This document shows, piece after piece, positions 1 to 55,172 of a DNA stretch of 62,394 bases (its first letter is position 1; each line of letters starts with the position of its first letter). Source of the DNA: a virus (Duplodnaviria > Caudoviricetes); IMG/VR virus record IMGVR_UViG_3300013132_000054, positions 1 to 62,394 of that record; one strand, 5' to 3'. The position numbers were made by a program, and so were the translations under genes. The notes below the pieces were generated by a model. It searched no databases. It was not told the DNA's origin and worked only from the letters and a program-made list of their open reading frames with translations.

Positions 1-2059
1 CCCCTTGGAACATAGTTGCCAAGCTAGTTATCTTTCTAGTATCCCAATTTGATATATCTTGATTAAATGCAATTGCGTTTAGGAACATTGACGTCATTCC
101 AATACCCGCAACATTAGATACGTTCCAACCTGTTAATGGTAATGTGCTTGTTCCAGACAAACCTCCGTTATTAAACGCAGACGCATTTTGAAACATGAAC
201 GACATACTAGTAACTCCCGACACATTCCAACTATTACCATTTGTTCCAATATATCGGTTAAATAATGCGGCACTAGAAAACATAGTTATCATACTAGTAA
301 CCTTCCTAGTATCCCACGTTGATATGTCTTGATTAAACTTGTTAGCCGTATTAAACATACTAACCATATTTGTAACATTACTAGTATTCCAACCCGTTAA
401 AGGTAAATTACTTAATCCAGCCGCTTCCCCATTGTTAAACGCAATTGCGGATTGGAACATACTATTCATCAAGGTCACGTTTCCTACATCCCAAGAACTG
501 ATGTTTTGATTAAATGAATTTGCTTGTTGGAATAATGAAGTCATAATAGTGACACTCCCAACATTCCAACTTCCAATAGGTTGATTGAAAGTTGTCGCCA
601 AATAAAACATTTGTGCCATATTAGTAACATTACTAACATTCCAACCACTAATTGACGGACTACCTCCATTATTGAAAGCAGTTGCCTGTTGACACATTCC
701 AGACATATTAGTAACACCTGACACATTCCAAGAGACACCACTTGTACCAATATTTCTGTTGAACACTGATGCTCTATAAAACATATTTGACATATTAGTC
801 ACATTTCTAGTGTCCCATGTTCCAATATCTTGGTTAAATGATGTCGCTAAAATAAACATACTATTCATCAATGTTACATTACTAGTATTCCAACCTGTTA
901 AAGGTAATGTACTTGTTCCAGCCGCCCCTCCATTGTTGAAATTGGTGGCCGATGAGAACATCGAAGCCATTGTGGTCACACCTGATACGTTCCAAGAATT
1001 ACCACTTGTATTAATATTCCTATTAAATGCCGTTGCGTTGTTGAACATAAAAGACATATCAGTCACATTTCTAGTGTCCCATGTTCCAATATCTTGGTTA
1101 AATGACGCATTAGTAGAAAACATACCAAACATAGTAGTTACCGCGGATGTTGTCCAAGCAGTTAAAGGTGACGTTCCACCCCCATTATTAAATGAAGTTT
1201 GTCGGAACATTTCGTACATGCTATTCACTTTTGAAACATCCCAATTAGATATGTTTTGATTAAAGGTCGAGCATAATAAAAACATACGATACATATTTGT
1301 AACGTTACTTACATTCCAACCACTTAATTGTTGATTAAAACTTGTACACCTAACGAACATTGATTCCATGTTCGTGACCGCAGAAACATTCCAACTTCCG
1401 ATAGGTTGATTGAAAGTTCCTGTTGCGGTCTTGGCAAACATTGACGCCATTGTGGTGACATTACTAGTATTCCACCCACTAATCGAAGAACTACCTCCGT
1501 TATTAAATTGTGTAGCATTTTCAAACATGCTATTCATCGATGTCACACCCGACACATTCCATGAACCTATATCACTATTAAAAGATGTCGCACCAATAAA
1601 CATAGAAGACATATCAATCACACTACTAGTGTCCCAACTATTAACTCCACTTATGGTGACAAGTGAAGTACACCCATTAAACATTCCCGTTGTTGCAGTA
1701 ATCCCTACTAAATCAATTGTATCTGTAACTCCACTTAGTACTAAATTAGTACTACCATTGAACATATTTAGATTGGAGTTATTAAGTCCTCGTACGGGTC
1801 CCCATTTTGTAATTTCACGAAGTCTGCCCCTTTCAGTAGTAGTTAATATACTCATTCTAAAACCTGTTACAGTTCCACTAATAGTAATGGTATATGAACT
1901 TGCAACGGAGTATGTATGTGCCCTATTAGCGTAGGTATTTGCAGAAATGGACCCATCACCCCAGTCAATAGTACCTGAATAGGTGCCTAATGATTCATAA
2001 GGTAATGTAATTATCTGATTAGATGCTGTTGTTATCCACCTACTTATAAATTCCGACAC
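1..2059 (-). CDS. DUF285/BspA-type repeat surface (adhesin-like) protein with N-terminal PKD-like domain; runs off the window start, so it is absent from the ORF track
   Basis: My translation from GTG at 2059 gives MSEFISRWITT...YSGTIDWGDG..., then about 20 repeats of W(N/D)(V/T)SxVTxMxxMFxxAxxFNxxI. The frame is open to position 2, with an in-frame TAA just upstream of the GTG. Confidence 0.9.
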   Translation of the reverse strand, partial: MSEFISRWITTASNQIITLPYESLGTYSGTIDWGDGSISANTYANRAHTYSVASSYTITISGTVTGFRMSILTTTERGRLREITKWGPVRGLNNSNLNMFNGSTNLVLSGVTDTIDLVGITATTGMFNGCTSLVTISGVNSWDTSSVIDMSSMFIGATSFNSDIGSWNVSGVTSMNSMFENATQFNNGGSSSISGWNTSNVTTMASMFAKTATGTFNQPIGSWNVSAVTNMESMFVRCTSFNQQLSGWNVSNVTNMYRMFLLCSTFNQNISNWDVSKVNSMYEMFRQTSFNNGGGTSPLTAWTTSAVTTMFGMFSTNASFNQDIGTWDTRNVTDMSFMFNNATAFNRNINTSGNSWNVSGVTTMASMFSSATNFNNGGAAGTSTLPLTGWNTSNVTLMNSMFILATSFNQDIGTWDTRNVTNMSNMFYRASVFNRNIGTSGVSWNVSGVTNMSGMCQQATAFNNGGSPSISGWNVSNVTNMAQMFYLATTFNQPIGSWNVGSVTIMTSLFQQANSFNQNISSWDVGNVTLMNSMFQSAIAFNNGEAAGLSNLPLTGWNTSNVTNMVSMFNTANKFNQDISTWDTRKVTSMITMFSSAALFNRYIGTNGNSWNVSGVTSMSFMFQNASAFNNGGLSGTSTLPLTGWNVSNVAGIGMTSMFLNAIAFNQDISNWDTRKITSLATMFQG
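797..1105. repeat. 45-bp exact direct repeat (797-841 and 1061-1105), period 264 bp, inside the DUF285 gene
   Basis: agtcacatttctagtgtcccatgttccaatatcttggttaaatga occurs twice. Confidence 0.9.
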
Positions 2060-2095
2060 CCGCCAATAAAATTTTTAACCCCGTTTATTTATTTG

Positions 2096-2102
2096 ATAAA
2101 TA
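2096..2102 (-). promoter_or_regulatory. Putative late promoter TATTTAT upstream of the DUF285 gene
   Basis: ATAAATA on + strand; same motif recurs before most structural genes. Confidence 0.55.
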
Positions 2103-2111
2103 ATCAAATAT

Positions 2112-3080
2112 TCATTTTTTGGCGAACTCTTTGATGATTTTTACATACTCAACTGTCGCGGAACTATTATCCACATAGTCAAAAAAATCCCCATTTTCCT
2201 TGACTTTGTCTATTGGATTTACATTGATGAATTCCCCTTTATAGAATTTTTCCCTTTTCATTGAGTCCATAACACCTGCCATATGTAATATCGGATGTTT
2301 TTCATATGTTTCAATGTCTGATGTCGCCCAAGAAAAACTTAACTCATCAATTATTTTTGTTTCCTTACAATCTCTCCACAAATTCCAAAGTAATGCCCAC
2401 ATTTCGGCAGTCCAATATTGTATTTGTCCTGAACCTATCGGAAATCTTTTTTGAAAGTCGTGTAATTTGTCATATAGTAAAATCGAATCAATATATACTT
2501 TTTCCCAAAATTTAAAATCTGTATTTTTTATTATGTATTGTCCCCCTCCTGACCCTTCTTGTCTTTCTTTAACGCAACTTAATTCAACCCCAATCACATC
2601 ACACATTTCTTGTATTAATTGTTGTGGTTTTAAATCAGAATATTGTTGTTCGTGTCTATCTGCAACCGTCTTAATATACTCATATCCAATGTATCCCTTT
2701 GTATCGGATACATAAGATATTTCATCATCAATAAACTGATAATAATCAGGTAGTTCCCTGAATATAATATCTGCATCGTGTAAAAAAAATAATTCACCCA
2801 ATTCAGGATGTTCTTCCAACCATTTGCTAATTAAAAAAGGTTTAATGCTCGGAATATAATGTTTCTTAAATCTTTCATCCTTATAAAAATGAACATTATA
2901 GCCATAGTTTCTTAATTCCAAAGCGCCTTCAGATGGTTCTTGTTGCCCGTTGCATAAACCATAAATAATGTGAATGTTTTCAGGTTTAATTCCCTTACTT
3001 ACAAAATTGTGTCCATAAATTTTTGCTTGCCAATGAAAATACGGAACATCGGGCTGCGCGGTTACATAAATCAACTCCAT
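2112..3080 (-). CDS. GT-A glycosyltransferase resembling peptidyl-serine alpha-galactosyltransferase / hydroxyproline arabinosyltransferase (GT96/GT95-like)
   Basis: Ordered motifs YFHWQ, YIPSIKPxxxxxWL, LHDADIIFR (DxD), GGG, WTAEMWA. These parallel plant SERGT1 motifs as I recall them: YFDWQ, YPAINKPxxxxxWL, ILDADMIIR, VGG, WISEMYG. Confidence 0.72.
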   Translation of the reverse strand: MELIYVTAQPDVPYFHWQAKIYGHNFVSKGIKPENIHIIYGLCNGQQEPSEGALELRNYGYNVHFYKDERFKKHYIPSIKPFLISKWLEEHPELGELFFLHDADIIFRELPDYYQFIDDEISYVSDTKGYIGYEYIKTVADRHEQQYSDLKPQQLIQEMCDVIGVELSCVKERQEGSGGGQYIIKNTDFKFWEKVYIDSILLYDKLHDFQKRFPIGSGQIQYWTAEMWALLWNLWRDCKETKIIDELSFSWATSDIETYEKHPILHMAGVMDSMKREKFYKGEFINVNPIDKVKENGDFFDYVDNSSATVEYVKIIKEFAKK

Positions 3081-3117
3081 AATAAAAAATAATAATTAAA
3101 AAGTCAAATTTGTATAT

Positions 3118-3150
3118 AAAAAAAAACCACCTAATATGTAGGTGGTTTTT
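3118..3150. terminator. Intrinsic terminator, possibly bidirectional
   Basis: aaaaaccaccta-atatg-taggtggttttt inverted repeat with A and T tracts, downstream of 3170..5101. Confidence 0.8.
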
Positions 3151-3169
3151 AAGATTATTTTTAGTTTTG

Positions 3170-5101
3170 TTAGTTTGTCGATATGTATGCCGAACGTGTT
3201 TGTAAGGTATTCTTATCAGTAATCCCTTGACCTGTTGGGGCTGCGTGACTTCCTTTAATTACTATGTAGGTATTTGGAATAGGTGCGATAAGTGGTAAAT
3301 TAGCAACCAAGTCCGCAAAAAGTCCATTAACTTCACTAGCCGTTAAATTAGTTGTTGATTGGGTATATAATCTAATGTCGCAAGAACGGTTATTACCTGT
3401 CCAATTATTAAGACCTAACCAATTTGAAGCGGTGTTAACGGTATTACCAGTACTGATAATGTAAACATCGGGTGAAAACACATCATTTAAACCACCACTT
3501 ACAGTATTATTACCTTCAAGATTTAATATACCAAGACTAGTGGCACTTTGAAATGATGATAATGGTCCTGTTAAGGTGTTACCAGTCGTTGAGTATTCAA
3601 TATCGGAGTCAAAAGTAACTGTTGGAATATTATATAATCTGAAAATTCCTATAGTTTGATTTAGGGCTATCGCTGAGGTGTTGCCGCTCATAGTATTATT
3701 ACCACCTAAAGCAAAAATTTCTGTTGGCATCATAAACCCAGCAAAACTTCCATTTATAGTATTGTAACCGTCAATAATCATTTCAATTAATGAATTCATG
3801 TGAGATGGTTGGGAATCCGCTAAAAGTCCTCCTATTGTATTATACCCATTTAAATAATAATATTCAGTATTAGGTCCAAATACGATATTTCCAGATATTG
3901 TGTTATATCCCTCAATTTGTACCGAAGTAATACCCGTTAAAGACGAGCAATTTCCTGATAAAGTATTAAATCCATTAATACTTAAATTATTTAAATAGTT
4001 GTAACTTGTTAAATAACTAGTATTTCCACTGATAGTGTTATTACCCCAAATGGCTAAATCAATAATATACGTAGGTAATGATGATAAATCACCTTCTAAT
4101 GTGTTATTACCAATAATTGTAACAAATCTAGCACTTATTGGTAAGTCAGAAATATTACCATTAATATTATTATTTTTGGTAAAAATATTAATCAAACTAG
4201 TACAAGCAGATAAACCAAGAATATCTCCAGTAATGAAATACTCAGCGCTTAAATCATATAAATCAATTAATTTTCCAATTTCACTCGTAAATCCTGTAAG
4301 GTTAACCCCGTTGTCAAAAAAAGTAGTATTATAAATACCTGGAAGTTGTCCATTATTTATCGTATTACCTGAGATTTTAATATATCCTGATGAAGGTGAT
4401 GAATAAGTGTGAGAAATAACTTGATTTGATGTGGTATATGCCGATGTATTTCCGTCGCCCCAATCAATTGTATAATCAAGTAATCCTATTTGTAGTTTAA
4501 CACCTAATGAGCTATTGGTAATTGCCTGATATTGATATTCAACCGCCTCAGTAATATATAATGGGTCAGTTGGAGATGGTGTTGGAGTTACCGCATTTGT
4601 TGGTGTAGGTGTCGGGCTACCGACAGGATTTTCAGGATACCATTCACCGGCAATTTCAATACAACTACCAAGATAGTCATCCAATATTTCATAAGAAGCA
4701 TTACCAGTCGCTGACTGAACACATAAATATTGGATAACGTTAGACGTTGCAGTAAATGCTGATGTAACTCCATTACAATCCAAAATTGTAATAGTGTCAC
4801 CATATGTCCAAGCGTCAGTAGGTTGTATTGCAGTATAATTACAATAAAACGGTGACGGTGTTGGTGTTGGTTCAATACTACAAGAAGCTTGTCCTAAAAA
4901 TGAACATCCATTTGATACCGAATACGCACTTAATATAATTGTATTACCCCAGTTACCTACAGGTAACTGTATATTGAGTGGCATTTGTGTGACATCAGTT
5001 ATCGTAGGAGGATAAATATAAATTAATGTTGGTTCATTCAAACTCGATATTTGAACTTGTGATGGTGGTCCCGAATATGAGACTAATTTAACGTATGGCA
5101 T
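3170..5101 (-). CDS. Putative virion fibre/surface protein: Pro/Thr linkers, Cys module, PKD-like domain, LRR-like solenoid
   Basis: PTPTP tracts; IDWGDG...SHTY; repeated IxGxNTI/LSGxxxxL units. Confidence 0.6.
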   Translation of the reverse strand: MPYVKLVSYSGPPSQVQISSLNEPTLIYIYPPTITDVTQMPLNIQLPVGNWGNTIILSAYSVSNGCSFLGQASCSIEPTPTPSPFYCNYTAIQPTDAWTYGDTITILDCNGVTSAFTATSNVIQYLCVQSATGNASYEILDDYLGSCIEIAGEWYPENPVGSPTPTPTNAVTPTPSPTDPLYITEAVEYQYQAITNSSLGVKLQIGLLDYTIDWGDGNTSAYTTSNQVISHTYSSPSSGYIKISGNTINNGQLPGIYNTTFFDNGVNLTGFTSEIGKLIDLYDLSAEYFITGDILGLSACTSLINIFTKNNNINGNISDLPISARFVTIIGNNTLEGDLSSLPTYIIDLAIWGNNTISGNTSYLTSYNYLNNLSINGFNTLSGNCSSLTGITSVQIEGYNTISGNIVFGPNTEYYYLNGYNTIGGLLADSQPSHMNSLIEMIIDGYNTINGSFAGFMMPTEIFALGGNNTMSGNTSAIALNQTIGIFRLYNIPTVTFDSDIEYSTTGNTLTGPLSSFQSATSLGILNLEGNNTVSGGLNDVFSPDVYIISTGNTVNTASNWLGLNNWTGNNRSCDIRLYTQSTTNLTASEVNGLFADLVANLPLIAPIPNTYIVIKGSHAAPTGQGITDKNTLQTRSAYISTN

Positions 5102-5126
5102 TTTTTATTTTTTTATATTTTTAATT

Positions 5127-7658
5127 TTATGAACATAATACCGCATTTGTAACATAACCGCTAGCATCAACTTGTACCGCGACTTTATAAGGTGCATACC
5201 CTTCAAATGTATAATAAGTATTGGCTAAAGCAATCCACTGATTTCCACCATTAACCAATACACCATTCTCATCATACAATAGTAATACAGATGGAACAAA
5301 ATTGGCAACTAACTGTTGAACACTTTGAGTTCCGTTTAATGTTGACCCCATCAATTGATAGTATGATTGATAATCAAAGTTTGAGCATGATGCCCCACTT
5401 GTTGCTTGGAACGCATTATCTCCAACACATCCCATTCTATTTGAAATGTTTGAAGTTTTTGAAACATTTATTGAATAAAATGTTGGTAATGGGTCTAGTG
5501 GAGTTAAAGGCGCTAAGCTAGCGTTTACACCAGCGGCATTTAGGAATGTTCCGGTTCCAGCAATAGTTCCTCCAGTCATTTCAATTTTAATATATTCCCA
5601 TCCTGCTGCCGATGGATTAGTTGGTACTGCGGTATATCCTATTTGAATTTCCCCTCCCGAAGGTATAGTAAGTGTATATCCTGTAGTCACTCCATTAGGT
5701 AATACTACGTTAGGACCTAAACCATCAGAAAATACAAATTTATGTTGTAACCCACTTATAGTATTAATGTTAGTGTATGGCCAAGATATCTCGATATCAA
5801 CTGTAGCACCAGGTGTTCCAATAATGTCAATTGACCCTCCAATACCTGTAGCGGTTTGTGGGGTTATAAATCCACTATTAATCCTACACGCAGTGTTTTT
5901 AAATAAAATTGATTCAACATTAATATTATTTTGACAAGTCAAACAATCACTAAATTCTAAAATTGTTTGTAAGTAATTATATTGTGGTTGTCCATCTAAT
6001 CTAAATCCTGTATACTCCCAACATCCTTCATAGTCTTCTAATGTGTAAACATTCCCAATTTCAGCTCCTTGTGGTACACTTAAACTATATACTTTAGTTC
6101 CTGACAAGATTGATGCGAAGTAATTATTTAAATTATTTGTAACTAAAGATTGTGTAAATCCTGTAATTGTCGCATCTAAACTCCAACCAAAATTTTTCAA
6201 TCCAGCACCAACCTGATACTGTGATGGTAATGACTGATAAGCACTTGTATCTGTAAATCCTGTGAATGAGTTATAATAAGTTAAAGGACTAAAATCATAA
6301 TATTGCCCTTGGTTGTAAGTAAATGCAGAATAATTATTATATCTTTGATTTGGGTATGGCCATACCGTACCAGTTGAATTATTTTCACAATACGTTGCCT
6401 GAAAATAAGATGACGCCTGCGGTATTGACGCCTCCATTAATTCAATTGCCTGATATAATAAACCAAATCCTTGTGATTGATTTCTTGCCCCATTAGAATT
6501 AGCAGCAGTAACTGCTGTAGTTGGAACTGGGAATAGGAATGACCTAGCAAATCCGTTTAATGTAATATTAACATCTTCCCATACTTTTAACCAAGATTCA
6601 TAATCTCTTTGTAATGATGAACCCGAATAAGAACCTGAATATCCTGGATAGTTTCCTAAACAAGATGTTGGTACATATATTTGAGGTGCAGGATTTTGAG
6701 GATTTGGATATGGATACCCTCCATTATTAAGAATTGGGGTAAATTCCATACCAATTGAGTCAGTGTCCCATAAATAATATGATTGAAATCTATCCGTTCC
6801 TCCAGATGTTGCACTATTATTAAAACAATTATCTACATTCGCGTTACCCGGTTGTGCAGATTCATTTAATACAATAATTGATACATAATTAGTATCTCCT
6901 CCATCAAATTGACCTAATGTTATATTACTACCATCAACATAAGATGCGTGGTCAAATGGGACCCCCTTACTAATACCAGGCCCTGACAAATACGCCCCCG
7001 TCGCTAAATTTTTGGCTAACGCAATTCTTTCAATAATTGGGCTATTCTGAAGAGGAGTAGTATAAATTCCAGATTTAGTGACTCTACCCATTTCAATTCT
7101 AACTGTTGAGCTGTCTGATAAAGTTCCTCCAGTAGTAGACCCTAAATATGGGTAACACGCCCAATTAATCCATCTCTCATTAATTATAGGAATCTCATAT
7201 AAATCCCCAGTATAACCGCTAAGAGTTACCAAATCATAATACCAATTCCTAATTGATTGAGATGCCCCACTAAGTGTTTCAGTACCAGGTCCGGTAACAT
7301 TAACACCATCAGGGTATGAACCTGAAGTATCATAAAATACATAAATATTTTTGTCCAATGGTTGACCACACTCTGAAAATCCCCAAGTGCCAGGTGGTTC
7401 AATACTACAATCAATTAACTGTGGAATAGTAAATAACGTTGTGCTGGCAGACAGTTGGACAAAGACGTATTGGTCATAGTCAAATGCACTATCTATTGCA
7501 AAATAAGCCGGTAAATTTGTATCTGGAGTAAGTTGTGTTGGTAAAGTCACACAAAATCCATAATCTATTGTTGGTGGAATTGTGTTTGTATTAGCCGAAC
7601 AAACAACAATGTTACTATTAACATCCCCAGTATAATTTGTAATTAAAATTTCTGCCAT
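5127..7658 (-). CDS. Putative virion protein with vWA-like (MIDAS) domain and Cys-rich module
   Basis: NIYVFYDTSGS (DxSxS after a hydrophobic strand), later VSIIVLNES; GCWEY...FSDCLTC module. Confidence 0.5.
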   Translation of the reverse strand: MAEILITNYTGDVNSNIVVCSANTNTIPPTIDYGFCVTLPTQLTPDTNLPAYFAIDSAFDYDQYVFVQLSASTTLFTIPQLIDCSIEPPGTWGFSECGQPLDKNIYVFYDTSGSYPDGVNVTGPGTETLSGASQSIRNWYYDLVTLSGYTGDLYEIPIINERWINWACYPYLGSTTGGTLSDSSTVRIEMGRVTKSGIYTTPLQNSPIIERIALAKNLATGAYLSGPGISKGVPFDHASYVDGSNITLGQFDGGDTNYVSIIVLNESAQPGNANVDNCFNNSATSGGTDRFQSYYLWDTDSIGMEFTPILNNGGYPYPNPQNPAPQIYVPTSCLGNYPGYSGSYSGSSLQRDYESWLKVWEDVNITLNGFARSFLFPVPTTAVTAANSNGARNQSQGFGLLYQAIELMEASIPQASSYFQATYCENNSTGTVWPYPNQRYNNYSAFTYNQGQYYDFSPLTYYNSFTGFTDTSAYQSLPSQYQVGAGLKNFGWSLDATITGFTQSLVTNNLNNYFASILSGTKVYSLSVPQGAEIGNVYTLEDYEGCWEYTGFRLDGQPQYNYLQTILEFSDCLTCQNNINVESILFKNTACRINSGFITPQTATGIGGSIDIIGTPGATVDIEISWPYTNINTISGLQHKFVFSDGLGPNVVLPNGVTTGYTLTIPSGGEIQIGYTAVPTNPSAAGWEYIKIEMTGGTIAGTGTFLNAAGVNASLAPLTPLDPLPTFYSINVSKTSNISNRMGCVGDNAFQATSGASCSNFDYQSYYQLMGSTLNGTQSVQQLVANFVPSVLLLYDENGVLVNGGNQWIALANTYYTFEGYAPYKVAVQVDASGYVTNAVLCS

Positions 7659-7675
7659 AATTTTATTCTTTTTTC

Positions 7676-7682
7676 ATAAATA
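7676..7682 (-). promoter_or_regulatory. Putative late promoter TATTTAT
   Basis: ATAAATA on + strand about 18 nt upstream of start 7658. Confidence 0.55.
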
Positions 7683-7737
7683 TATAAAATGAAATATTTT
7701 TGTAATTAGCTTTTTATTTTTTATAATTTACATTATA

Positions 7738-10700
7738 TTATGTCAACACACAAACTCCTCCTACACATCCTCCAAGTGTATTATATGTAACATTTGCAGG
7801 TGGAATAGGATTGACAAATGATGTTGCACAGAAACTAGTTGACGTTGATGACCTTGAAACTGTTATAAATATTCTATTTCCACTACAATCATCATATCCA
7901 ATATTAACCGCAGTAACTCCATTATTTGTCACACTATAACAATAGCAATTTACAGGTGTAGGTGTCGGTGTTTTTGTTTTTGTTGGAGTCGGAGTTTCAT
8001 TCACAACCGTCGTTTTTGTTGGAGTTGGTGTTTTTGTTTTCGTCACAGTCGGTGTTTGAGTTGGGAAAGTAATTAATGTTTTTGTCGGTGTTGGTGTGGG
8101 TGTTTTTGTTTTTGTTACGGTCGGTGTTGGTGTTGGTGTTTTTGTTTTTGTGGGTGTAGGTGTTTTTGTTTTTGTCACAGTTGGTGTTTGAGTTTTGGTT
8201 GGTGTAATAGTTGGTGTTGGTGATATTCCGCAATTATCCGGAGCTTTATAGTAAACAATGTTTGAGCAACTAGAAGAATCGGTAAATACAACATATACAG
8301 AACAATATTGTCCGTTAGCCGGTAAGTCATTAAATATTACATCATAATCAGTATTAAATGGTGGGTAAAACACATTTTGAGTTATGGTACAACTATTTGC
8401 AATTACCAAAGTTCCAGTTAATGGTGGGTTTGATATGTGAACTGATGTCAATGCTGATACGTCATAAGTAATTGTTGAAGAGTCGCAAGCTCCAGGCACA
8501 ATTGGGTCAATTATGATTTCACAAGGTGAATTATTAGTTGGGGTTATTGTCACAGTTGGTGTGACAGTTTTAGTAGGCGTATTGGTAATAGTTGCGGTAG
8601 GAGTAACCGTAGGTGTTAAAGTAGGTTGTGGTGTTAATGTTTGTGTAGGCGTTACTTCAGGAGTTGGGAATTGTACCTGTCCAGGAGTAAGAGTTGGTGT
8701 TGTAGATACTGTTGGACTTGGTAGTACCACCGTATCACACTCAACTTCATAAATAATTCTTACATCTATTTTAATTGCATCTTGTGGTTCTAATGGGTTA
8801 TCACACAAACTATTAATTACCATTCTACCACTCTCATAATCAACAATTAAACTACCAAAAAGTCCTAAACTATTAAGATAATCTTGGACTAATTTAGCAT
8901 AGTCGTAATTTGATGGGACATCAAATAATGAATTGGTTGAATATAATGTGAATGTGCTGGCAGAGCCCGCCACATCAATATCCACATAAAAAAATGCAAC
9001 TTTTAAAGAACAATTAACCTGACCTTGTGTCAACTCAATAAATCCTTGATTAAGCATTTCTAAAAATCCTACGGTGTCATCCTCACCACAAACAAAGTCA
9101 CCACTTCCAAAGTCATAACTATAAGTTGAAACATCTCTTAACTCACATTTTACTATTGCTGTTTTTCTTGTTGAGCATCCCTGAGAATCAGTTATTGTTA
9201 AAGCGTATTCCCCATTTGATAAATTATACACCGCATACCCTGTCTGTCCTGAAACATCTCCTTCCCAAGTTAATGTATATGGAGGTGTTCCACTATTAAT
9301 AAATGCAGTTAAAGTTCCTTGCGGTAAACATCCAGAATTAACAATATTAAAATCAATTCCATTTGACCCTCCAACCGTAAAGTTTTTTGTAATGGAACAT
9401 CCTGAATTGTTTGTTAATGTTACTCCATATGTACCTTGTGGTATTCCTTGTAAAGTATAATCAGAAGTTAAATTTCTAATTGTCGCTCCGTTTGAAAGAG
9501 ATAATGTAAATGTTTGTCCTGCTATTGTAGTTGTGATATCAATAAAACAAGTTCCATTATTAATTCCACAAGTAGTGCTTGTTGGCGTTAACTCAAAATC
9601 AAATCCTAAATTTTGTTCTAAAATTATAGTTTCTGTGTAAGTACAACTTTGTAAATAATCAACTACACTAATTGTGTATGTACCAGCACTTAAACTGCCA
9701 AATCCTATTGTTGAATTTGCAGGTAGATTTGATTGGGTGGTTACAAAACCATTTGTATTTACACAAGAAGCCGATAATGGTGCCCCTCCTCCATTAACAG
9801 AAATTTCTATAAATCCGCTTGTAGAATTACAACTTTTAAACCCACTTGACGATGAAATTACACCAAAAGAATTGGCAGTTCTTAAATTAAAAGTTTGACT
9901 AACATTACAAGTACTACTTACACCTGTAAAACTAAAATCTCCTGAACCTAACCCATTAAAAGTTACAGTTCTTCCACTAGTAAATGTCGTACCTAATGAT
10001 GTATAGTAAGTTATTGGTAAGGAGCCACCGGTTAATACTATTTCAACAACACCGTCATTAAGAAAACAAGATGGGTTAGTAAAAGAAAATTCAGCAATTC
10101 CTAATCTATCATCAAGTCCAACAATTACTTCCTGTGTAACTACACACCCTGTTCCGTCAGTTACCTCAACAATATAAGTAGCATTTGTTAATCCGGTTAA
10201 ATAATAATCATCTAATTGTAATCCAACATTTGTTGACCAATTAATTGATACAGGCGGAGTTTCATTATATAAAGTAAGATATATTTCACCGTTGGGTCTT
10301 AAAGCACAGGGTGAATTATTTACTACTGTAGCATTTACCGATAGTAAACTATACGAACTATCAATTACCATAGTACCAGTATTGGCACTACATCCACCGT
10401 TATCTTCTATAATTACATAATATGCATTTGGGGATAATCCTGAAATTGTATACGGATTATCGGTAGAATTTGTAACCGATAAAAGATTATCATCAATATC
10501 GTATAAATTAAAAGTTGTAATATCCCCTAAATTTGGTGATAAGGTGATTTCTATTTGCCCATTATTTAACCCACAAGTACTGTCAATTGCAATTGTATTA
10601 GCCGAAATACCTGAAGATATATAAAGATTAATATTAGCAGTATTGTTTATTGGTGTATTAGAATCACTTACAAATATGGTATACGTTCCTGCAGAAAGTC

Positions 10701-14740: not shown

Positions 14741-14742
14741 TT

Positions 14743-42194: not shown

Positions 42195-45100
42195 TTAGTT
42201 AAATTTATGCTTACCATTAAAGGTTTGTTTATCTTCGTTACTGTTCCCTGTTAAATATATATTCCTTAATCTATTTTGTAAATCTTCAGTTGGGCTTGCA
42301 ACCACACTATATGTGAATTTTCTTTCAATTGTTTTATCCCCTTCAATTTTTGTATACTGTTGTTCGTATTTTGATTTCCAAGCAGAAATTAAATCGTCAA
42401 CATTTTTGATATTTTTTCCGTAAACACCATAATATCTGTTTTCAAAAAGATAACTATTAAGTTTAATTTTCATTGACTCTTCGTTACTTGTACCTTTTAC
42501 CGCCTTTGTCAAAAAATCTTGTTTTTTAATTTCGTCTCTGAAAATTGGGTCCATTATGGTCATAAATTGAGCGTCTTGTTTGGTTACTGGTGGCTCAAAT
42601 CCAAGTAATCCATTAACATCAAAGTTATCAGACGGTAGTAATCCAACATCTTTTAATGAAGAGTAAAATCCATTGATAGTGTTTATTATATTTTGATAAT
42701 CCGCGGTTAATTGTTCGTATGTGTCAGTAATTTCTGGATTTGTTGGTGATGTAATTGTTATTCCTGAAATATCTAAAATTTCAACTGACTGATTTGAATT
42801 GACTTTTCCATCGTGTTTTTCAGACACAAAATCGGCTTTTTCAAAATTTACAACTAAAATTTGTTGGGTTTCACAAATATCTTGTATTAGTTTAGATAAA
42901 TCTGTAGTAAAATTATTTTTATAATCATTTAAATAATTTATAACATTTTGTGATATTTTATTTTGGTCAGATTTACTAGTTCCTTCATTTGCTTGCGCCA
43001 TTGTGTTTTGCCAAGCCAATTGTTTATTTTTTAAATTATTGATTACATTTACAAACCAAGAATCTAAAGTAATTTGTATTTGGTCAGGTTTTCCAAAAAT
43101 TTCAACTTTTGCAGAACTATTATCCAAACTAGCAGTTCCTGTAGAATATAATCTATTTTTACCAAACGCTTGGAGTATTGTCCCATTATATGGAGTTTTA
43201 AAATCAGTTAACTTGGCAATTATTGAATTGATATAATTTTGACAAGAACCTGACAGATTATTCATAAAATCTTTATAATTTATAATTCCAGTTGTTGATT
43301 CAGGTAATTCTTCCCTTGTTTCTTGTGTACCAATATATATACCACCATTATTTTGAACTGCGTTTTGGATAATGGTTGAGCCAGATTTTTCACCTCTATC
43401 ATCTAATATTTTTTTAACTAAATCTTCATCAATTTTTTTAAATGAGTCGTCTGTCCATTCCGCTCTTTCATCAAATATTTCAGTATTTGCATAGTAATTA
43501 AATGATAAAGCATTTTGTAATGTATCAATTGGTTCTTTCAAACCTGAACCCCCAACAAAATTAAATCCCAAAGTGACTTTAGCAATCATCGGTTGAAATC
43601 CAATTCCTTCAGGATTAAAATCATATACTGGGTCGTAAGTAATATTAATTGAATTTGGGATAATTCTTGTGTTATAAAAATCACCAACTCTTAGGATTAA
43701 CACAGGTGGAGCACCGAATGCTGTGTTAGTCGCCGCATTATATTTTGGTTTACCATCAGTTCCTATTGTCGGTATAGTATCTCCAGGTCTTGAACATTGG
43801 TTCAAGAATGTTAATCTTGAGTTCAAACCTTCAGGTGTCATTGAGTGGAAAGCTGGAGTGAAATACTTCAATTTTTGTTTAATTGAATCGTATATCATTG
43901 GGTTTTCACCTTGTATTGCGGTAAAATAATCACATTCAGATAATAATTCTCTTAATATTTTTTTAGACACTCCGTCTCTAATTTTTTGAGTCGTTGTAAT
44001 TGTTGGTGGTGTGAATGGGGGTATCCCTGGAAAAGGAACTTTTCCCCCTCCTTGAAATGGTACTATATCACTATTTGTTGTTTCTTCAGTTGGGGGAGTA
44101 CCTTCAGTATTATCATTACCATTAGTAGTTATAACTTCAATATCTTTAATTGCAACTCTTCTACACCACATAGCTTGGTAAGAATAAATTGTATTGTAAT
44201 TATTGCTTGAGCTTGCAGAATCTTGGTCACTACAATTAACACTTTGACTTGACCCTACGGATTCTTTAGCAACAACATTAACCGCCTCTTCACCTTGTGG
44301 TTCTTCTACTATTACAATTTTTTTATCGTCAATAAATTTTTGGAAAGCTTTACCGTAATCCGTAGTATCTTCTTTGAACCATTTTAAAACAGAGTCAATT
44401 CTTCTCTTGGATAACCATTCGTTGTATTGGATTGTTGCCGGACGTGAAGCACTTCCAACAAGAGTGATTTTTATCTGAGTAACAGTTGTTTCATTTTCAT
44501 CAAGTACTTTAACTACGTCTTTTCTAAAATCTTCTTCAAGTGTCTTGTTATGCTCAACAACATTTGTAAAAGTATTTGCAACTTGTTGTTTATTTGCCGC
44601 AGGGGCACTTTTACTATATCTTGATTTAGTAGTCTCACTTGTGTAAGTATCATAAGCGGTTTTCCAACTATAACTTGCAGTCGGAATACCTTTTTGTTGT
44701 GGTGGTGGGATATCGTTATCAAAATACCAACCTAAATTAACATACTTACCAGGTAACTCTGAACCGGGTGTTGAAGTTGTGCTATTTGCTGGTTTACCTT
44801 CTGTCCCATTAGTACCATTTGTTGACGACCCGTCACCGGAAATTTCCCCGTTTGAATCGGATTCAGTTTTAAGTCCCCCCGCTTCTGCAGAAATTTGACT
44901 TAATTGGTCAGCGTTTATTGATGGATTTGTAATTAACTGTTGGTAGGTAAATAAATCACTACTTTTTATCTGTGTAAATTTTCTAGCCAATTCATATAAG
45001 TCATACTTTAAACATCCCGCAAAAAACGAATCAACAATTGAGTTGACTTTTTGAACATTTGATTCATTCTGAAGAATTTTATCAGTAATTGTATTCAATA

Positions 45101-50161: not shown

Positions 50162-50201
50162 AGTAATGTTTTTTAGAAAAATAAATAGTTAAGGTAATAA
50201 A

Positions 50202-50336
50202 TCAATCCTTATTTTCCGTTTTATTGTGTCTATTATCAAATTCTTCTTGTGTTTCAAATACTTTACCACAAGTCGGACATACAAATTCGGTATTACCTGA
50301 AAAAAAAAGTTCCATACACATAAGTATATGGAACAT
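50202..50336 (-). CDS. Small CxxC / C2H2-like zinc-finger peptide (44 aa; 37 aa from ATG 50315), not in ORF track
   Basis: My translation: MFHILMCMELFFSGNTEFVCPTCGKVFETQEEFDNRHNKTENKD; TATTTAT at 50347-50353 just upstream. Confidence 0.45.
   Translation of the reverse strand: MFHILMCMELFFSGNTEFVCPTCGKVFETQEEFDNRHNKTENKD
50300..50334 (-). terminator. Intrinsic terminator after the tail tube gene
   Basis: Minus strand gttccatatac-ttat-gtgtatggaac followed by T9. Confidence 0.75.
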
Positions 50337-50360
50337 AATTTTATTAATAAATAGTAAATT

Positions 50361-50849
50361 TTAGTAAACTAAAATACAACGGTCAGGTCTTAAAGTTGCA
50401 GTAATACCTGCTAATCCGTCCTGTGAATAACTTAAAGTTTCAAAGTTAACACCTGTTAGGAATGTACCTTGTAATATCCATTTTTCAACTACAACACCTG
50501 TTGGGTCTAACAATTCCAAATCAATGTCCTTTTTATATCCTGCAGCGTAACCCATACGACCAGTTACTGATTCTGCGTGTAAACGAACCCATTCCATTAA
50601 TGCTTGAGCCGCAGATGGTCCGATTGGGTCACGGAATTTAACATTAATTGTTTCCCAAGTAAATCTACCAGCAACATATGTTGATGTATTTAAGAATTGG
50701 ATTTCTGTCGAATTTATTTTAATATTTGGTCGTGATGTTGATTCTACGAACCACTCATTAATTCCTAATGATGAAGGAAATCTTAAAATGAATCTGTTTT
50801 GTCTTTTGGGTTCGTAAGGAACCGGCATTTTCATCAGTAAATCAGCCAT
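50361..50849 (-). CDS. Tail tube protein (T4 gp19-like)
   Basis: EPKRQNRF, YVAGRFTWETINVKFRD, YKKDIDLELLDPTGVVVEKWILQG. Confidence 0.9.
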   Translation of the reverse strand: MADLLMKMPVPYEPKRQNRFILRFPSSLGINEWFVESTSRPNIKINSTEIQFLNTSTYVAGRFTWETINVKFRDPIGPSAAQALMEWVRLHAESVTGRMGYAAGYKKDIDLELLDPTGVVVEKWILQGTFLTGVNFETLSYSQDGLAGITATLRPDRCILVY

Positions 50850-50881
50850 TGTCTTATTTTTTTAATTTTGTTTTATTGCTT

Positions 50882-50888
50882 ATAAATA
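50882..50888 (-). promoter_or_regulatory. Putative late promoter TATTTAT(A) for the tail tube gene
   Basis: TATAAATA on + strand at 50881-50888. Confidence 0.6.
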
Positions 50889-50965
50889 GTGTTGTTTATA
50901 TTTTTTTCTATTTACTTTTATTTTTTTTAATTTAATCTTCTACTAGTCCAGTTCTAGTATTAATA

Positions 50966-51829
50966 TTAATTAATTTTTCTTTTATTTCCTGATTGAGTTG
51001 AATAAATTTTAACACCTGGTTCATCACCAAATTCTTTATCAAACATTTCAATATTCTTTGGGTCATCATCAGATACACCTAATTGAAATTCTGGTATAAA
51101 TGAATTAGAAATATCATTTTTAATCATTGCTTTTAAGCTAAGTTCTTGAGCCAATTCTTTACAATAATCTAAAAAATTTCTAAATGCAATTTTTTTTAGT
51201 TCTTCAGGATTTGCGGCAGAACCCTCTCCGAAAGTCACAGGGTGAAATTTACAAAGGTTAAGATACTCATTAATTAATTCAATATCCTCCATATTTTGAA
51301 GTTCAAATATCTCTCTATATTTTTGTAGATTAGATACACATTGTTTCATACTTAATCCGTGTTTACCTGAAAGAATTAGTTCATAACAAGCTTCTTTAAT
51401 AGTTTCAGGATTATGTCCCCTTGCGGTAATTATTGAAAAGATTGAACCTCCGTTTATACATTCTACAAAATCATTCCAAGCCGGTCCCACAGGAGCAATT
51501 AAACAATCAATCAAAAACTTTTCGTCCCCATCTGTTTTAAAATCCCTAAACATATTTGGTGCAAATTCTACAATGTCGTGTCCATTGTATGAAAACTTAT
51601 CTTTACCGATACGACTTCTATATTTGGCGAAATCTTTTGTTGACATGCCAATTTCTTCATCTTTGTCACTTAAAACATAAATTACAGTCGGCATATACAT
51701 AAGATTATCATCCCAATCAAATGCATAATATTTTAAAGAAGGAATCCCCTCCTCCGATACTGCTTCAAGTAATCGGAGGATAAGGGAATCCATTTTTGTT
51801 TTGTTTAAACTCATATTAGATATTATCAA
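50966..51829 (-). CDS. HAD-superfamily hydrolase (true start may be a downstream Met)
   Basis: AFDWDDNL (motif I), IITARG (II), K, GVSDDD (IV). Confidence 0.75.
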   Translation of the reverse strand: MIISNMSLNKTKMDSLILRLLEAVSEEGIPSLKYYAFDWDDNLMYMPTVIYVLSDKDEEIGMSTKDFAKYRSRIGKDKFSYNGHDIVEFAPNMFRDFKTDGDEKFLIDCLIAPVGPAWNDFVECINGGSIFSIITARGHNPETIKEACYELILSGKHGLSMKQCVSNLQKYREIFELQNMEDIELINEYLNLCKFHPVTFGEGSAANPEELKKIAFRNFLDYCKELAQELSLKAMIKNDISNSFIPEFQLGVSDDDPKNIEMFDKEFGDEPGVKIYSTQSGNKRKIN

Positions 51830-54800
51830 ATGACGCTCCTGTTGGAGTTATTAAGAACTCAATATCTATGAACTCTAAAGATTTAGTTGGTTTAACATAG
51901 ATTTTACCTACTAATTGGTTTCTGTCTAAATCTTCAGCTGAAGATGAAACAGTTACACGGAAATCATATAAACCTCTATCTCTTCTGATTGAATCCAAAA
52001 TAGGATTAACTGCGTCCAAGAAATCTTGTCTCACTTTAGCATCGTTTTGTTCAAACAACAATCTAACTGCGACTGCTGAAATTAACTTACGAGCTTGTAA
52101 TAATAATCTTCTAACATTTAATCTGTCAAGAGCGGACTCTCTAATTTGTAAAGTTTTATTACCCCAAATTACAGTTCCTACATCAGAGAAAGTTGCGATT
52201 GGGTTAATTCTTCCTTTATAAAGAGTGTCTCTATCTTCTTGTGTTAACTTCTTACGTGCTTTAACTGCATTTACAATACCACGTGTGTAACCCGCAGATG
52301 CGAACCAAGGGAATGCAATATTATCAGTTAATGCTAAGTTTCTACAAACTTCCGCAGTTGGTGGGATGTAGATTTGAGTGTTATTAACTGTATCACGAGT
52401 TAATACCCAAGGATAGTAAGTTGCGGTATAGTTAGAATCAATTCCTGTTTCTTCTAATGAATCAACCGCATCTTGTGGATAGATTAAATCATCAGCAGTA
52501 TATGTTTGAACTAATAAATTACTGTCAGGAGTTGTACACAAATAAATTGAGTCAGCTCTATCAAACTCAATCATTTCAATTGAAGCCTCAACTAAATTTG
52601 AATTGTTCAACCAATCAATACCAGGAGTTGCAAATACATTTATATTTGTTGCTTCAGGGTTTGAGAATGTTTTAATACCTAACAAATATGCATAATAGTC
52701 AGTATTTGCCCAATCTTGAGTATTGTCACCAACACTTATTAATTTAAATGTTCCCGCACCTGATGCATTTGGATAACGTGCGGTAGCACAAGCTCCATAC
52801 AAGAAACCTCTTTGTCCTACTTGGAATAAATCTCCATTAGTTCTTGTTTCACGATAGATGTCCCATGCGTCAAATCCTCCTTGTACTAACAAACTAAATT
52901 TACGTGAAAATAATCTATAATATGGACTTGATGTGTTTGTAGGTTCAGAATTAAATGATGCTGCTCCAACTTCAAATGCAGATTCTCCCGATGTTGTATA
53001 TCCTGATGGAATTAAAACAACAGTTGCCCCACTATCCATATGGAAACCTTTGGATAAAAATGACCACTCATCTCCTGTAGTATCTTCACAAGGGTCAATA
53101 GGTCCTTGTTTTCCTTTATATTGGAAATAATCACTATCATATCCGATAGTATCTGATATACCCAAATAAGTTCTTCTTACATTGTCCCCACCGCTTCTAA
53201 TAACAACGTCAGTTCCGTCAGTAATACCAAATGGAGGATTATAAATTACTTCACCTGGGAAATCATACTTTGTTTTATAAATTGGAAATCCTGTTTTAGC
53301 ACCAGCGTAATCTCTTGATTTATAACCTTCAAATCCACAAGGTAAAGCATCTACAGGTGCATCAACATTATAATCTACCATTATGTATTTAGAGTTTAAA
53401 ACAAACTCACCGTCAGAAGAACCAATTTTCTTAGCAATATAGTTATTCAAATTTGGGTCTAAAGAACAGTTTGTGAATTTTTCTAAAACTACAGGTGATT
53501 CATCACTATCATAGTAATTTCTAACAACAACATCAAATGTTCCGTTTGCAAATGAAATGTTCAAAATTGAAATTTTAACTTGGAAATTTGCAGAATTACC
53601 GTCAGCGATTGATACAAATCTAAACAATTTATATACATTATTACCACGTAGTTCAGAAACAACCCAAGGAGATACTGGACTTTGATACTTTTCTAAATAC
53701 CAAGCAATTGATGTTCCTGAATTGTAATCCTGTCTGTATCCAGGTAATGCAATTAATTCTGAACTTAATCCACGAATATAACCTTTTCTCCAAGCCCACG
53801 TTAATAATGTTGAATAATTTTCTTCTAACATTAATGGAACTTGAGTTCTTGGTTTTGTAAAGTTTCCATAACCTAATACTTTATTAATTGCAGTAGCGTC
53901 TGTTTCAGACAAACTAACTTTCAAGTTAAAGTTTGTGTTATCAACTGTAGTACCTGTAATTGCAAATGGTGCAAATGGGTTTTGCTCTACCGCCGCATAA
54001 CTTCCACTAAAATCTAAACCAACAGATGTTAAACCTGTTACTTGATAAGAAGGTCCGTTAGATGTTGCAGTATAGAATGTTAAACCTCTTGAACGCATTG
54101 TTGCAACCACTAATTCGTGATATTCAGAATAAGTCAAACCTGACATATTAAATAAATAACCGTGAATTGACCCCGAATAACAAACATTAGGTGTTGTAGG
54201 TGTGGTTGTTACAGTTGGTGTTGGTGTTGGTGAAACATCACAAGGATTATAAGTTGAAGTAACAGTGACTGTAGGTGAAGGGGTTGTAGTTGTTGTAACT
54301 GGAAGTAATTCCAAATTATCAACTACAATTACAAATGAATATCCTGAATAGTTTTCACCTGAAGTTGGGTCAAATAATCCATAATACCAAGCGTCATTAT
54401 ATGGTGATGTAAAGCTACAACTGTAGGATGAGTTACCACTTACACCCATAACATTTGTTACGTTTGTAAATCCTGCACCTGTATAAGTGTTATAAACATC
54501 TCCGGGTATTATACCCCAAATTGCAATTGAGTCGCCACTCATAGTAGTGTCAGCTAAAATACCTTGAACAAATGACTTAATATCATCTTCTAAAGTAGAC
54601 GTTCCTCCATCAAATTGGGTGTATACATTTGTATATTTCGCTTCAATATCTTCAGGGAATAATCCTTCAAATGATAATTGTGAAATGAAATTACTACAAC
54701 CTGTGAATGTTACTGAAATTTCACTTGTTCCTGTAATCACACAATTTGTTTCACAAATTGCTGGGTCAACTGCGTAGTTTGGTGTTGTGGAACAACTGTA

Positions 54801-55172
54801 AGTATAACCTACGGTTGATGAGTCAACATTTGCTACCGTTTTTAAAGACCAAGAAGGTCCCGCATCGTAACCCGATAAACCCAATACCCTTGTTACAAAT
54901 AATTGATTTGATTGTTGGAGGTATGCCTTAGCGATATAAGACATTTCATATTTTGGTATTTGTGTATTCACAAATTTTTCAGGAGTTGTTCCCCCAAAAT
55001 AAGTTTGATACTCATCATAATTTGTGATGAATATCGGTTCAAAAGCTGGTCCTTTGGTAGCTTCTCCAACTAATCCCAAAGTTGTAACACCTACGCTAGA
55101 TGTTACAAAGCTCAAGTCCCTTTCTGATGTATAAACACCAGGCGAAACGAATACTTTGTTTGCTGTTGCCAT
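51816..55172 (-). CDS. Contractile tail sheath protein with large outer-domain insertions
   Basis: VSPGVYTSERD, GEATKGPAFEP, YYPWV, PWFASAGYTRG, INPI...IWGNKTL, RLNVRRLL. Confidence 0.95.
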   Translation of the reverse strand: MATANKVFVSPGVYTSERDLSFVTSSVGVTTLGLVGEATKGPAFEPIFITNYDEYQTYFGGTTPEKFVNTQIPKYEMSYIAKAYLQQSNQLFVTRVLGLSGYDAGPSWSLKTVANVDSSTVGYTYSCSTTPNYAVDPAICETNCVITGTSEISVTFTGCSNFISQLSFEGLFPEDIEAKYTNVYTQFDGGTSTLEDDIKSFVQGILADTTMSGDSIAIWGIIPGDVYNTYTGAGFTNVTNVMGVSGNSSYSCSFTSPYNDAWYYGLFDPTSGENYSGYSFVIVVDNLELLPVTTTTTPSPTVTVTSTYNPCDVSPTPTPTVTTTPTTPNVCYSGSIHGYLFNMSGLTYSEYHELVVATMRSRGLTFYTATSNGPSYQVTGLTSVGLDFSGSYAAVEQNPFAPFAITGTTVDNTNFNLKVSLSETDATAINKVLGYGNFTKPRTQVPLMLEENYSTLLTWAWRKGYIRGLSSELIALPGYRQDYNSGTSIAWYLEKYQSPVSPWVVSELRGNNVYKLFRFVSIADGNSANFQVKISILNISFANGTFDVVVRNYYDSDESPVVLEKFTNCSLDPNLNNYIAKKIGSSDGEFVLNSKYIMVDYNVDAPVDALPCGFEGYKSRDYAGAKTGFPIYKTKYDFPGEVIYNPPFGITDGTDVVIRSGGDNVRRTYLGISDTIGYDSDYFQYKGKQGPIDPCEDTTGDEWSFLSKGFHMDSGATVVLIPSGYTTSGESAFEVGAASFNSEPTNTSSPYYRLFSRKFSLLVQGGFDAWDIYRETRTNGDLFQVGQRGFLYGACATARYPNASGAGTFKLISVGDNTQDWANTDYYAYLLGIKTFSNPEATNINVFATPGIDWLNNSNLVEASIEMIEFDRADSIYLCTTPDSNLLVQTYTADDLIYPQDAVDSLEETGIDSNYTATYYPWVLTRDTVNNTQIYIPPTAEVCRNLALTDNIAFPWFASAGYTRGIVNAVKARKKLTQEDRDTLYKGRINPIATFSDVGTVIWGNKTLQIRESALDRLNVRRLLLQARKLISAVAVRLLFEQNDAKVRQDFLDAVNPILDSIRRDRGLYDFRVTVSSSAEDLDRNQLVGKIYVKPTKSLEFIDIEFLITPTGASFDNI

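Follow-up and report, generated by a model that had tools for sequence, protein, structure and literature searches.

Does a short motif that recurs in the outer tail proteins of a large myovirus mark the places at which a phage-encoded enzyme attaches sugars? The question is raised by IMGVR_UViG_3300013132_000054, a viral contig (Duplodnaviria; Caudoviricetes) of 62,394 bases that was analyzed over its full length and is called the window here. Several of its tail proteins carry the tetrapeptide [ST][GA]x[ST] many times over, and a gene for a putative glycosyltransferase (2112..3080) lies inside the fiber gene cluster. A sequence-only reading of this DNA had joined the two observations, taking the tetrapeptide as the acceptor sequon of the enzyme. 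Our analysis separates them. The tetrapeptide is a genuine, selected feature that this phage lineage shows in seven outer tail proteins, and is more probably a structural element, at the end of a strand or within one, in beta-rich domains such as the PKD/FN3-like sandwich, DUF285, and other repeat units than a modification signal. The enzyme, judged from sequence and gene order, more likely decorates Thr-rich stretches of virion proteins than the tetrapeptide. We give this division into two separate findings, a structural strand element on one side and O-glycosylation of Thr-rich tracts on the other, a slightly better than even chance of being correct.

Recounting reproduced all tetrapeptide counts of the sequence-only reading. 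The strongest carrier was the 16669..18423 product, with nine tetrapeptides among 13 [ST][GA] dipeptides against 1.4 expected (z 6.5), and the 14743..15897 product had eight among 14 such dipeptides against 1.5 expected. The 3170..5101, 5127..7658, and 7738..10887 products had 13, 15, and 16 tetrapeptides where 4.4, 4.85, and 8.4, respectively, were expected (z 4.9 for 5127..7658). The sheath (51816..55172) had 14 against 5.7, and the DUF285 protein (2..2059), a weak carrier, had 13 against 7.2. Collectively, the seven carriers are four distal proteins of the fiber cluster, two from the baseplate region, and the sheath in its inserted domains. Nearly all sheath sites had been placed in variable domains, and we found 13 of the 14 between residues 147 and 728 and not in the conserved core of the sheath. 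The low counts reported for other proteins also held, with no tetrapeptide in the tube, the Baseplate_J-like wedge protein, DnaB, or UvsX/RecA; NrdA and the gp32-like single-stranded DNA-binding protein (SSB) have one apiece.

We then compared these counts with shuffled sequences. Whole-protein shuffles gave p ≤ 0.001 for the 3170, 5127, 14743, and 16669 carriers, p of 0.003-0.006 for the sheath and 7738..10887, and p of 0.03 for the DUF285 protein. Shuffling inside blocks of 20 or 40 residues had the same outcome, and the enrichment, which the sequence-only reading had proposed to check in this way, persisted both globally and locally. Across the seven carriers, ST-GA-x-ST was observed 88 times against 33.9 expected (z 9.4) and ranked 2 of 402 class triplets. 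Shifted spacings of the motif were not enriched, [ST][^GA]x[ST] was depleted (154 against 216 expected), and [ST][GA]x[^ST] occurred as expected (119 against 117). When all 20 open reading frames (ORFs) of the tail module were scanned without selection, the pattern again ranked second, here of 554 (112 observed, 58.1 expected, z 7.1); the sole pattern above it was P-ST-x-ST, which came from Pro/Thr tracts. The enrichment is confined to the seven proteins, since the 13 remaining tail-module ORFs gave 24 tetrapeptides against 24.4 expected, and 16 replication and other ORFs gave seven against 7.8. A caveat applies to 3170..5101, 7738..10887, and the DUF285 protein, where many sites fall in internal repeats (units ISGNTS, SGLSAGTYT, and WNVSGVT) and are therefore non-independent; the DUF285 tetrapeptides come mostly from the WNVSGVT unit. 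Masked-window self-comparison detected no internal repeats in the other four carriers.

As a control, 24 proteins of phage T4, among them fibers, baseplate, sheath, Hoc, and capsid, showed no general tetrapeptide excess. Two exceptions, gp29 (six against 1.9) and UvsW (five against 0.8; both p ≤ 0.006), are probably due to chance among 24 proteins or to helicase motifs. Because the T4 fibers have no general excess, the tetrapeptide is a lineage-specific feature and not a general property of tail fibers. Codon use at the motif sites equaled codon use elsewhere in the same genes, so a cause at the DNA level was rejected and the signal lies at the protein level. Two other candidate sequons were tried on the seven carriers. 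The Bacteroidota host sequon D[ST][AILVMT], from which the tetrapeptide had been said to differ, was not enriched (19 observed, 20.4 expected, 0.93-fold), and N-x-[ST] was weakly enriched at most (1.19-fold). Common homology of the carriers was rejected as well. Their folds had been described as unrelated, and BLAST found a 41-residue PKD-like piece common to 2..2059 and 3170..5101; the other link among tail proteins was one weak match between 10887..13832 and 7738..10887.

The tetrapeptide is under selection, as its conservation in carrier families demonstrates. We aligned the 14743..15897 protein with 42 homologs (45-62% identical), drawn from the 120 listed of 1,082 matches. The 43 aligned sequences had a mean of 10.0 tetrapeptides against 1.69 expected, with z > 3 in 42 of 43, and about eight columns retain the pattern while x varies. 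Conserved columns include SGGT (36/43), TGLT (35/43), and T[GA]YT (41/43), and at column 252 the pattern is present in 40 of 43 sequences as SGYT, TGYT, SGFT, or TGNT. No homolog of this protein was found in GenBank phages. The 16669 family (64 sequences, median identity 40%) had a mean of 4.4 against 1.32 expected and z > 3 in 23 of 64; three columns are conserved while the remaining sites turn over, and the window's clade has gained sites, reaching nine.

The tetrapeptide usually comes after a short stretch in which hydrophobic residues alternate. Such residues are enriched 1.92-fold at position -1 and 1.48-fold at -3; Gly and Ala hardly occur at -1, and the flanks of the motif are depleted of Pro and charged residues. 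Over 87 sites, position 1 was Ser in 57 and Thr in 30, position 2 Gly in 55, and position 4 Thr in 59 and Ser in 28. In a model of 14743..15897 that was poor overall (mean predicted local distance difference test score [pLDDT] 58.5), sites 113, 252, and 293 lie in the better parts and all are in beta-strands. A wide structure search with residues 100-198 of this protein gave PKD/FN3-like sandwich matches (Z about 8) as its sole result. In an Atlas search with 16669..18423, every score was below 0.9 and no lead emerged. It is because of the strand context, the conserved blocks, and the presence in repeat units that we read the tetrapeptide as structural, a better fit than a sequon in a loop.

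Two further features of these proteins were observed. A PKD-like IDWGDG...H.Y module recurs in 2..2059, 3170..5101, and 14743..15897 (minus strand), which are otherwise unrelated, and PF18911 is recorded on two of the 120 homologs of 14743..15897 among the matches listed. Some relatives of the window encode long collagen-like Gly-x-y fibers (GTSGSSGTSG...), either downstream of the 7738 homolog (locus L023, 18764-21088) or as the last ORFs of loci L039, L049, L052, L053, and L074, with 43-119 tetrapeptide matches per protein. These fibers raise the tetrapeptide counts of some relatives and are not evidence for a sequon.

We turned to the enzyme. The 2112..3080 product had been called a glycosyltransferase, and fold and motif support this. 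It matched no Pfam family at E ≤ 0.01, Glyco_transf_8 included, and its sole profile match was phrog_4417 (function unknown; E 1e-65). Searches of PDB sequences with the enzyme alone and with its alignment returned nothing significant, and the Atlas leads were weak (HPAT, on 10% of one cluster, and DUF7164). We aligned 51 diverse homologs out of 812 matches among 1.84 billion representatives, and AlphaFold (AF2) built from them a model with a pLDDT of 97.7. The best Foldseek match of this model was the catalytic domain of UGGT (E 6e-7), followed by glycogenin, WbbM, GTA, A64R of virus PBCV-1, and GlyE, with a probability of 1.00 for UGGT, glycogenin, and GTA. VIA-align superposed the model on glycogenin with Z 15.2 over 226 residues (root-mean-square deviation [rmsd] 3.6), and gave Z 14.4 for LgtC, 13.8 for both the Skp1 galactosyltransferase and UGGT, and 13.7 for GlyE. 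Residues D102 and D104, in an HDAD stretch, are invariant in the 51 aligned sequences and form a DxD, the motif with which GT-A enzymes bind the metal and the nucleotide sugar. On this model, which has the single Rossmann-like alpha/beta/alpha GT-A fold, the product is predicted to be a GT-A, GT8-like glycosyltransferase, with GT8/GT24 enzymes as its nearest structural matches.

Ten long homologs were scanned for additional domains. Three are fusions with PF11397 (GlcNAc transferase), in one case with an O-fucosyltransferase (O-FucT) domain as well, and F5/8 type C domains are present in two. The PF11397 family has a role in polypeptide glycosylation. Domain content thus suggests multi-step glycan assembly in some phages. 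Among the multi-domain homologs, P0144, P0153, P0189, P0141, and P0270 combine the GT8-like domain with PF11397, O-fucosyltransferase, lectin-like F5/8 type C, or methyltransferase domains. Searches with tblastn found enzyme homologs in 77 GenBank phage records, including phages of Lactobacillus (23), Enterococcus (21), Staphylococcus (11), Lactococcus (8), and others, with no Streptococcus or Bacillus phage among them; a scan with P0155 returned no locus. The enzyme gene sits in the head or tail module in all eight GenBank contexts inspected, and between fiber genes in the window. As the family occupies the virion modules of many unrelated phages, it is reasonable to read virion proteins as the targets of glycosylation.

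The genes next to these homologs share a sequence feature. Seven of the eight contexts inspected in GenBank have a Thr tract on the ORF that ends immediately upstream of the enzyme homolog: the major tail protein of phiFL1A, the tube protein of phiCTP1, small Thr-rich proteins of PMBT8, Semele (gp075), and iLp84 (iLp84_8), a 428-amino-acid protein of Chryseobacterium phage MA9V-3, and a protein of R3.3. In the eighth, vipetofem, a poly-Thr tail is found on the major tail protein, 3.2 kb from the enzyme. A separate environmental lineage, comprising 80 loci in 34 clusters at 90% enzyme identity, showed the same arrangement, with 8 or more Thr per 12 residues in the upstream ORF of 23 of the 34 clusters (68%) compared with 5.6% of 248 other ORFs. 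In the window's own lineage (79 loci), at least 7 Thr in 12 residues were present in 54% and 72% of the first and second ORFs downstream of the enzyme, respectively, and in 8-24% of upstream ORFs. Among SPP1-type major tail proteins from complete genomes, the poly-Thr end was present in both genomes with the enzyme (phiFL1A and R3.3) and in none of the five without it (Javan47, 315.6, Javan377, phiJL-1, and ATCC8014); the profile used detected the enzyme in 5/5 positive controls. These neighborhoods make a tie between the enzyme family and Thr-rich tracts on virion proteins very likely.

Runs of 8-10 Thr in 12 residues were also seen in other proteins of these phages, namely the major head protein of phiFL1A (L007 4954..5949), a portal fragment and a 132-amino-acid head protein of phiCTP1 (L008 1..1029, 4218..4616), and a protease fragment of PMBT8 (L009 1..627). 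Several virion proteins per enzyme-carrying Firmicutes phage may, on this pattern, be acceptors.

Next, we asked whether the tetrapeptide accompanies the enzyme in the same way. At p < 0.05, a tetrapeptide excess was absent from every major head, major tail, tube, and small Thr-rich protein of six Firmicutes phage loci, and in Chryseobacterium phage MA9V-3 no ORF reached z > 2. The upstream ORFs of the 34 environmental clusters held fewer tetrapeptides than expected (146 against 249, ratio 0.59), with z > 3 in none. Within the window's lineage, the ORFs from -4 to +3 around the glycosyltransferase had observed/expected ratios of 1.9-2.9 over the 79 loci, which are partly inflated by the collagen-like fibers of some relatives. 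Motif and enzyme therefore co-occur inside the window's lineage and not in the three settings outside it. A role for [ST][GA]x[ST] as acceptor sequon of this enzyme is not supported by the comparison, in which poly-Thr accompanies the enzyme instead; the broader proposal of phage virion O-glycosylation stands as plausible, given the glycosyltransferase fold and the place of the family in virion modules.

The distribution of the enzyme among close relatives was also inspected. Two sets of five related contigs contained it in 0/5 and 2/5. Because these contigs are fragments, with estimated completeness of 10-56% and ends near the fiber cluster, absence of the enzyme from them is uninformative. 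Of 80 loci from relatives, just 10 had the enzyme inside the 10-kb flank, which has the same cause; the corresponding distance in the window is 11.7 kb. In loci L066 and L072 (contigs G007 and G006), a module of the enzyme, an ORF of about 800 amino acids, and an ORF of about 200 amino acids is inverted relative to the baseplate genes and lies 8-11 kb past the flanking sequence covered.

How, then, should the tetrapeptide be explained? That its counts merely reflect Ser-, Thr-, Gly-, and Ala-rich composition or a post hoc choice of motif is very remote: the carriers are indeed 16-27% Ser and Thr and the motif was picked after the sequence had been read, but the excess persists in global and local shuffles, ranks second of 554 when unselected, and recurs in independent homolog sets, while neither [ST][^GA]x[ST] nor the neighboring spacings show enrichment. 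An acceptor sequon of the 2112..3080 enzyme, coating exposed virion proteins with O-glycan, has more to commend it, as the enrichment is spacing-specific and limited to outer tail proteins, the GT-A enzyme is encoded in their midst, the excess is missing from T4, whose tested stretches do not encode the enzyme family either, and the 16669 family gained sites in the window's clade. Since motif excess and enzyme co-occur across the window's lineage, a lineage-specific change of acceptor is possible. We nevertheless think this account improbable, because the neighbors of homologs in all three other settings have no excess, the conserved partner of the enzyme family is poly-Thr, many sites lie in conserved blocks with the three better-modeled ones in beta-strands after hydrophobic residues, and three carriers owe many of their sites to repeat units. 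A motif for another factor, such as a transferase, chaperone, or binding partner encoded elsewhere in the incomplete genome, strikes us as no more probable than an acceptor sequon. The strong, lineage-specific coupling of three positions would suit it, and so would the size of the missing genome. PMC12619734 describes four core glycosyltransferase groups in aquatic jumbo phages that are predicted to infect Bacteroidota and may belong to the same lineage. However, Pfam and PHROGs revealed no further transferase among the window ORFs, any such modification is hypothetical, and the conserved-block and strand context fits structure.

The enzyme also admits another explanation, in which its acceptor is not a virion protein but DNA, a polymer of the host envelope, or a small molecule, and its poly-Thr neighbors are coincidental linkers. 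Phage glycosyltransferases commonly modify DNA or host polysaccharide, according to PMC12619734. The fold says nothing of the acceptor, and the best structural matches include LgtC and WbbM, whose acceptors are sugars. We regard this as unlikely, although less so than the sequon and other-factor accounts of the tetrapeptide, because the gene lies between structural genes in all eight GenBank contexts and in the window, adjacency to poly-Thr recurs with different neighbor families in distant lineages, poly-Thr tracks the presence of the enzyme among homologous tail proteins, and some homologs are fusions that include GlcNAc transferase domains of polypeptide type and a protein O-fucosyltransferase domain.

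In the reading that we favor, with a structural tetrapeptide and a separate glycosylation system, the soluble GT8-like enzyme would act in the cytoplasm, before or during assembly, and would O-glycosylate poly-Thr or Pro/Thr tracts of neighboring virion proteins in a mucin-like manner. Candidate acceptors in the window would be the Pro/Thr tracts of the 7738..10887 and 3170..5101 fiber proteins and of the sheath insertion, and it is the presence of these tracts in two fiber proteins and the sheath that makes virion O-glycosylation on Thr-rich tracts plausible here. Several observations weigh against this reading. Position 2 of the tetrapeptide is Ala in 32 of 87 sites, which speaks against a simple Gly-dependent turn; the one carrier model is of low confidence; and a purely structural motif of this kind has no known precedent, T4 lacking a general excess. 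The tetrapeptide excess around the enzyme throughout the window's lineage also fits it poorly. On the side of glycosylation, glycan, donor sugar, and acceptor are all proposed from fold and gene neighborhood, and the presence/absence comparison of poly-Thr tails covers seven genomes. The tracts of the window are Pro/Thr linkers, unlike the pure poly-Thr tails of Firmicutes phages, and the DUF285 ORF downstream of the glycosyltransferase has no Thr tract in the portion before the contig end. What the data show is the enrichment with its conservation, the modeled fold with its DxD, and the neighborhood association; the structural role of the tetrapeptide, the protein acceptor, and the sugar are what we infer from them. 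Coordinates of the proteins and tracts discussed here are collected in the table below.

Table. Tail proteins, enzyme, and Thr-rich tracts of the window (aa, amino acids)
Feature	Position	Strand	Basis or remark
DUF285 repeat protein	2..2059	-	Pfam PF03382, E 5.6e-165, 7 stretches; C-terminus cut by contig end
322-aa predicted GT-A fold, GT8-like glycosyltransferase (P0001; phrog_4417)	2112..3080	-	AF2 model; DxD D102/D104
643-aa repeat-bearing tail-fiber-like protein	3170..5101	-	PKD-like IDWGDG piece; Pro/Thr tract
Pro/Thr-rich tract, aa 159-182 of 3170..5101 product	4556..4627	-	Candidate O-glycan acceptor
843-aa protein, no known family	5127..7658	-	Pfam, PHROGs
1049-aa fiber protein	7738..10887	-	SprB-like repeats (sub-threshold Pfam match); long Pro/Thr/Lys tracts
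TPTPTKTK-type Pro/Thr tracts, aa 888-981 of 7738..10887 product	7945..8226	-	Candidate O-glycan acceptor
Pro/Thr tracts, aa 722-768 of 7738..10887 product	8584..8724	-	Candidate O-glycan acceptor
384-aa baseplate or fiber protein	14743..15897	-	PKD/FN3-like beta-sandwich, aa 100-198
584-aa protein, no known family	16669..18423	-	
Tail tube	50361..50849		
1118-aa tail sheath with large inserted domains	51816..55172	-	
Thr/Pro tracts, aa 290-331 (VTTTTTPSPTVTVTST, SPTPTPTVTTTPTTP) of sheath insertion	54180..54305	-	Candidate O-glycan acceptor

The window is part of a large myovirus, with nearly all genes on the minus strand. Related IMG/VR contigs reach 192-318 kb, and the window is therefore a fragment of a much larger genome. 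Besides sheath and tube, its structural genes encode a baseplate hub and Baseplate_J-like and gp25-like wedge proteins; the replication and other genes encode NrdA/NrdB, a DnaB-like helicase, a UvsX-like recombinase, the gp32-like SSB, and a 5'-3' exonuclease. Positions 2..23678 hold a cluster of large unannotated proteins, presumably fiber or baseplate parts, with the DUF285 protein at its end cut by the contig end. Three giant tail-module ORFs on the minus strand (18423..23678, 35373..41879, and 42195..47243; 1,751, 2,168, and 1,682 amino acids) matched no Pfam family and no meaningful PHROG, and showed no tetrapeptide excess. The sequence-only reading had named a tape measure protein, but no ORF in the window could be assigned as such by family match. 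On the plus strand, 58856..60487 (543 amino acids) has Fe/Mn superoxide dismutase domains (PF00081, E 3e-23, and PF02777, E 2e-40) in residues 1-226, followed by about 300 residues without a family, and looks like a phage-encoded superoxide dismutase fusion by its domain matches.

Taken more broadly, the phrog_4417 family could represent a widespread and undescribed phage system for mucin-like virion O-glycosylation, which we put at a little under an even chance. The targets would be poly-Thr tails or Pro/Thr linkers of tail tube, major tail, decoration, fiber, and sheath proteins. The system would operate in phages of Enterococcus, Staphylococcus, Lactobacillus, Clostridium, and Chryseobacterium and in abundant aquatic jumbo phages. 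Its boldest version would add [ST][GA]x[ST] acceptors in the window's lineage. Our literature search found no account of this enzyme family or of the pairing of poly-Thr with a glycosyltransferase in phages, within a coverage that barely extended to subscription journals and supplements.

Virion glycosylation has so far been shown for a few mycobacteriophages (PMC12363180, PMC12619734). If the reading of the poly-Thr tracts is correct, tails coated with glycan would be widespread, occurring in abundant freshwater jumbo phages and in phages that infect lactic acid bacteria, enterococci, and staphylococci. The affected genera include some with current or contemplated uses in therapy and food, and such coats would bear on phage immunogenicity, stability, adherence to mucus or polysaccharide, and host recognition. 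Several of the enzyme-carrying phages are cultured isolates, so this reading is directly testable. The tetrapeptide, for its part, is a strongly selected, lineage-specific signature of outer tail proteins.

The closest known counterpart is found in the mycobacteriophages Che8, Corndog, and Myrna (Freeman et al. 2023), where, according to PMC12619734 and PMC12363180, phage glycosyltransferases are present and glycans are reported at the C-termini of capsid and tail tube subunits. Glycosylation of these virions is reported there to shield particles from antibodies (PMC12363180, PMC12619734). As in that system, a phage glycosyltransferase here is encoded beside virion proteins with Ser/Thr-rich ends or linkers. 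In contrast, the phages here infect Firmicutes, Bacteroidota, and unknown aquatic bacteria, the tracts of the window are internal Pro/Thr linkers of fibers and sheath, and their glycans are putative.

At the level of fold, the enzyme resembles the retaining GT-A enzymes of GT8/GT24 (glycogenin, LgtC, GlyE, Skp1 alpha-galactosyltransferase, and UGGT) over the whole protein, with Z of 13.4-15.2 over 206-244 residues, rmsd of 3.3-4.2, and the invariant DxD, whereas sequence identity to them is 7-12% and the Pfam match expected of the family is absent. Several GT8/GT24 enzymes act on proteins or protein-bound glycans. The proposed acceptors, runs of Thr or Pro-Thr, recall mucin-type O-glycosylation and the O-glycosylated Pro/Thr linkers of bacterial enzymes; unlike mucin-type transferases, however, the 2112..3080 product falls outside the initiating families and the process would be cytoplasmic, so that the analogy is one of mechanism only. 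The tetrapeptide is short and centered on Ser or Thr, as is the sequon D-[ST]-[AILVMT] of Bacteroidota, the presumed host phylum, whose general O-glycosylation acts outside the cytoplasm. Finally, PBCV-1 A64R is likewise a virus-encoded GT-A enzyme and was among the Foldseek matches (rank 39, E 4.8e-5), although PBCV-1 is a eukaryotic algal virus and GT8 enzymes match the model more closely. A64R glycosylates the major capsid protein of its own virus, at atypical N-linked sequons.

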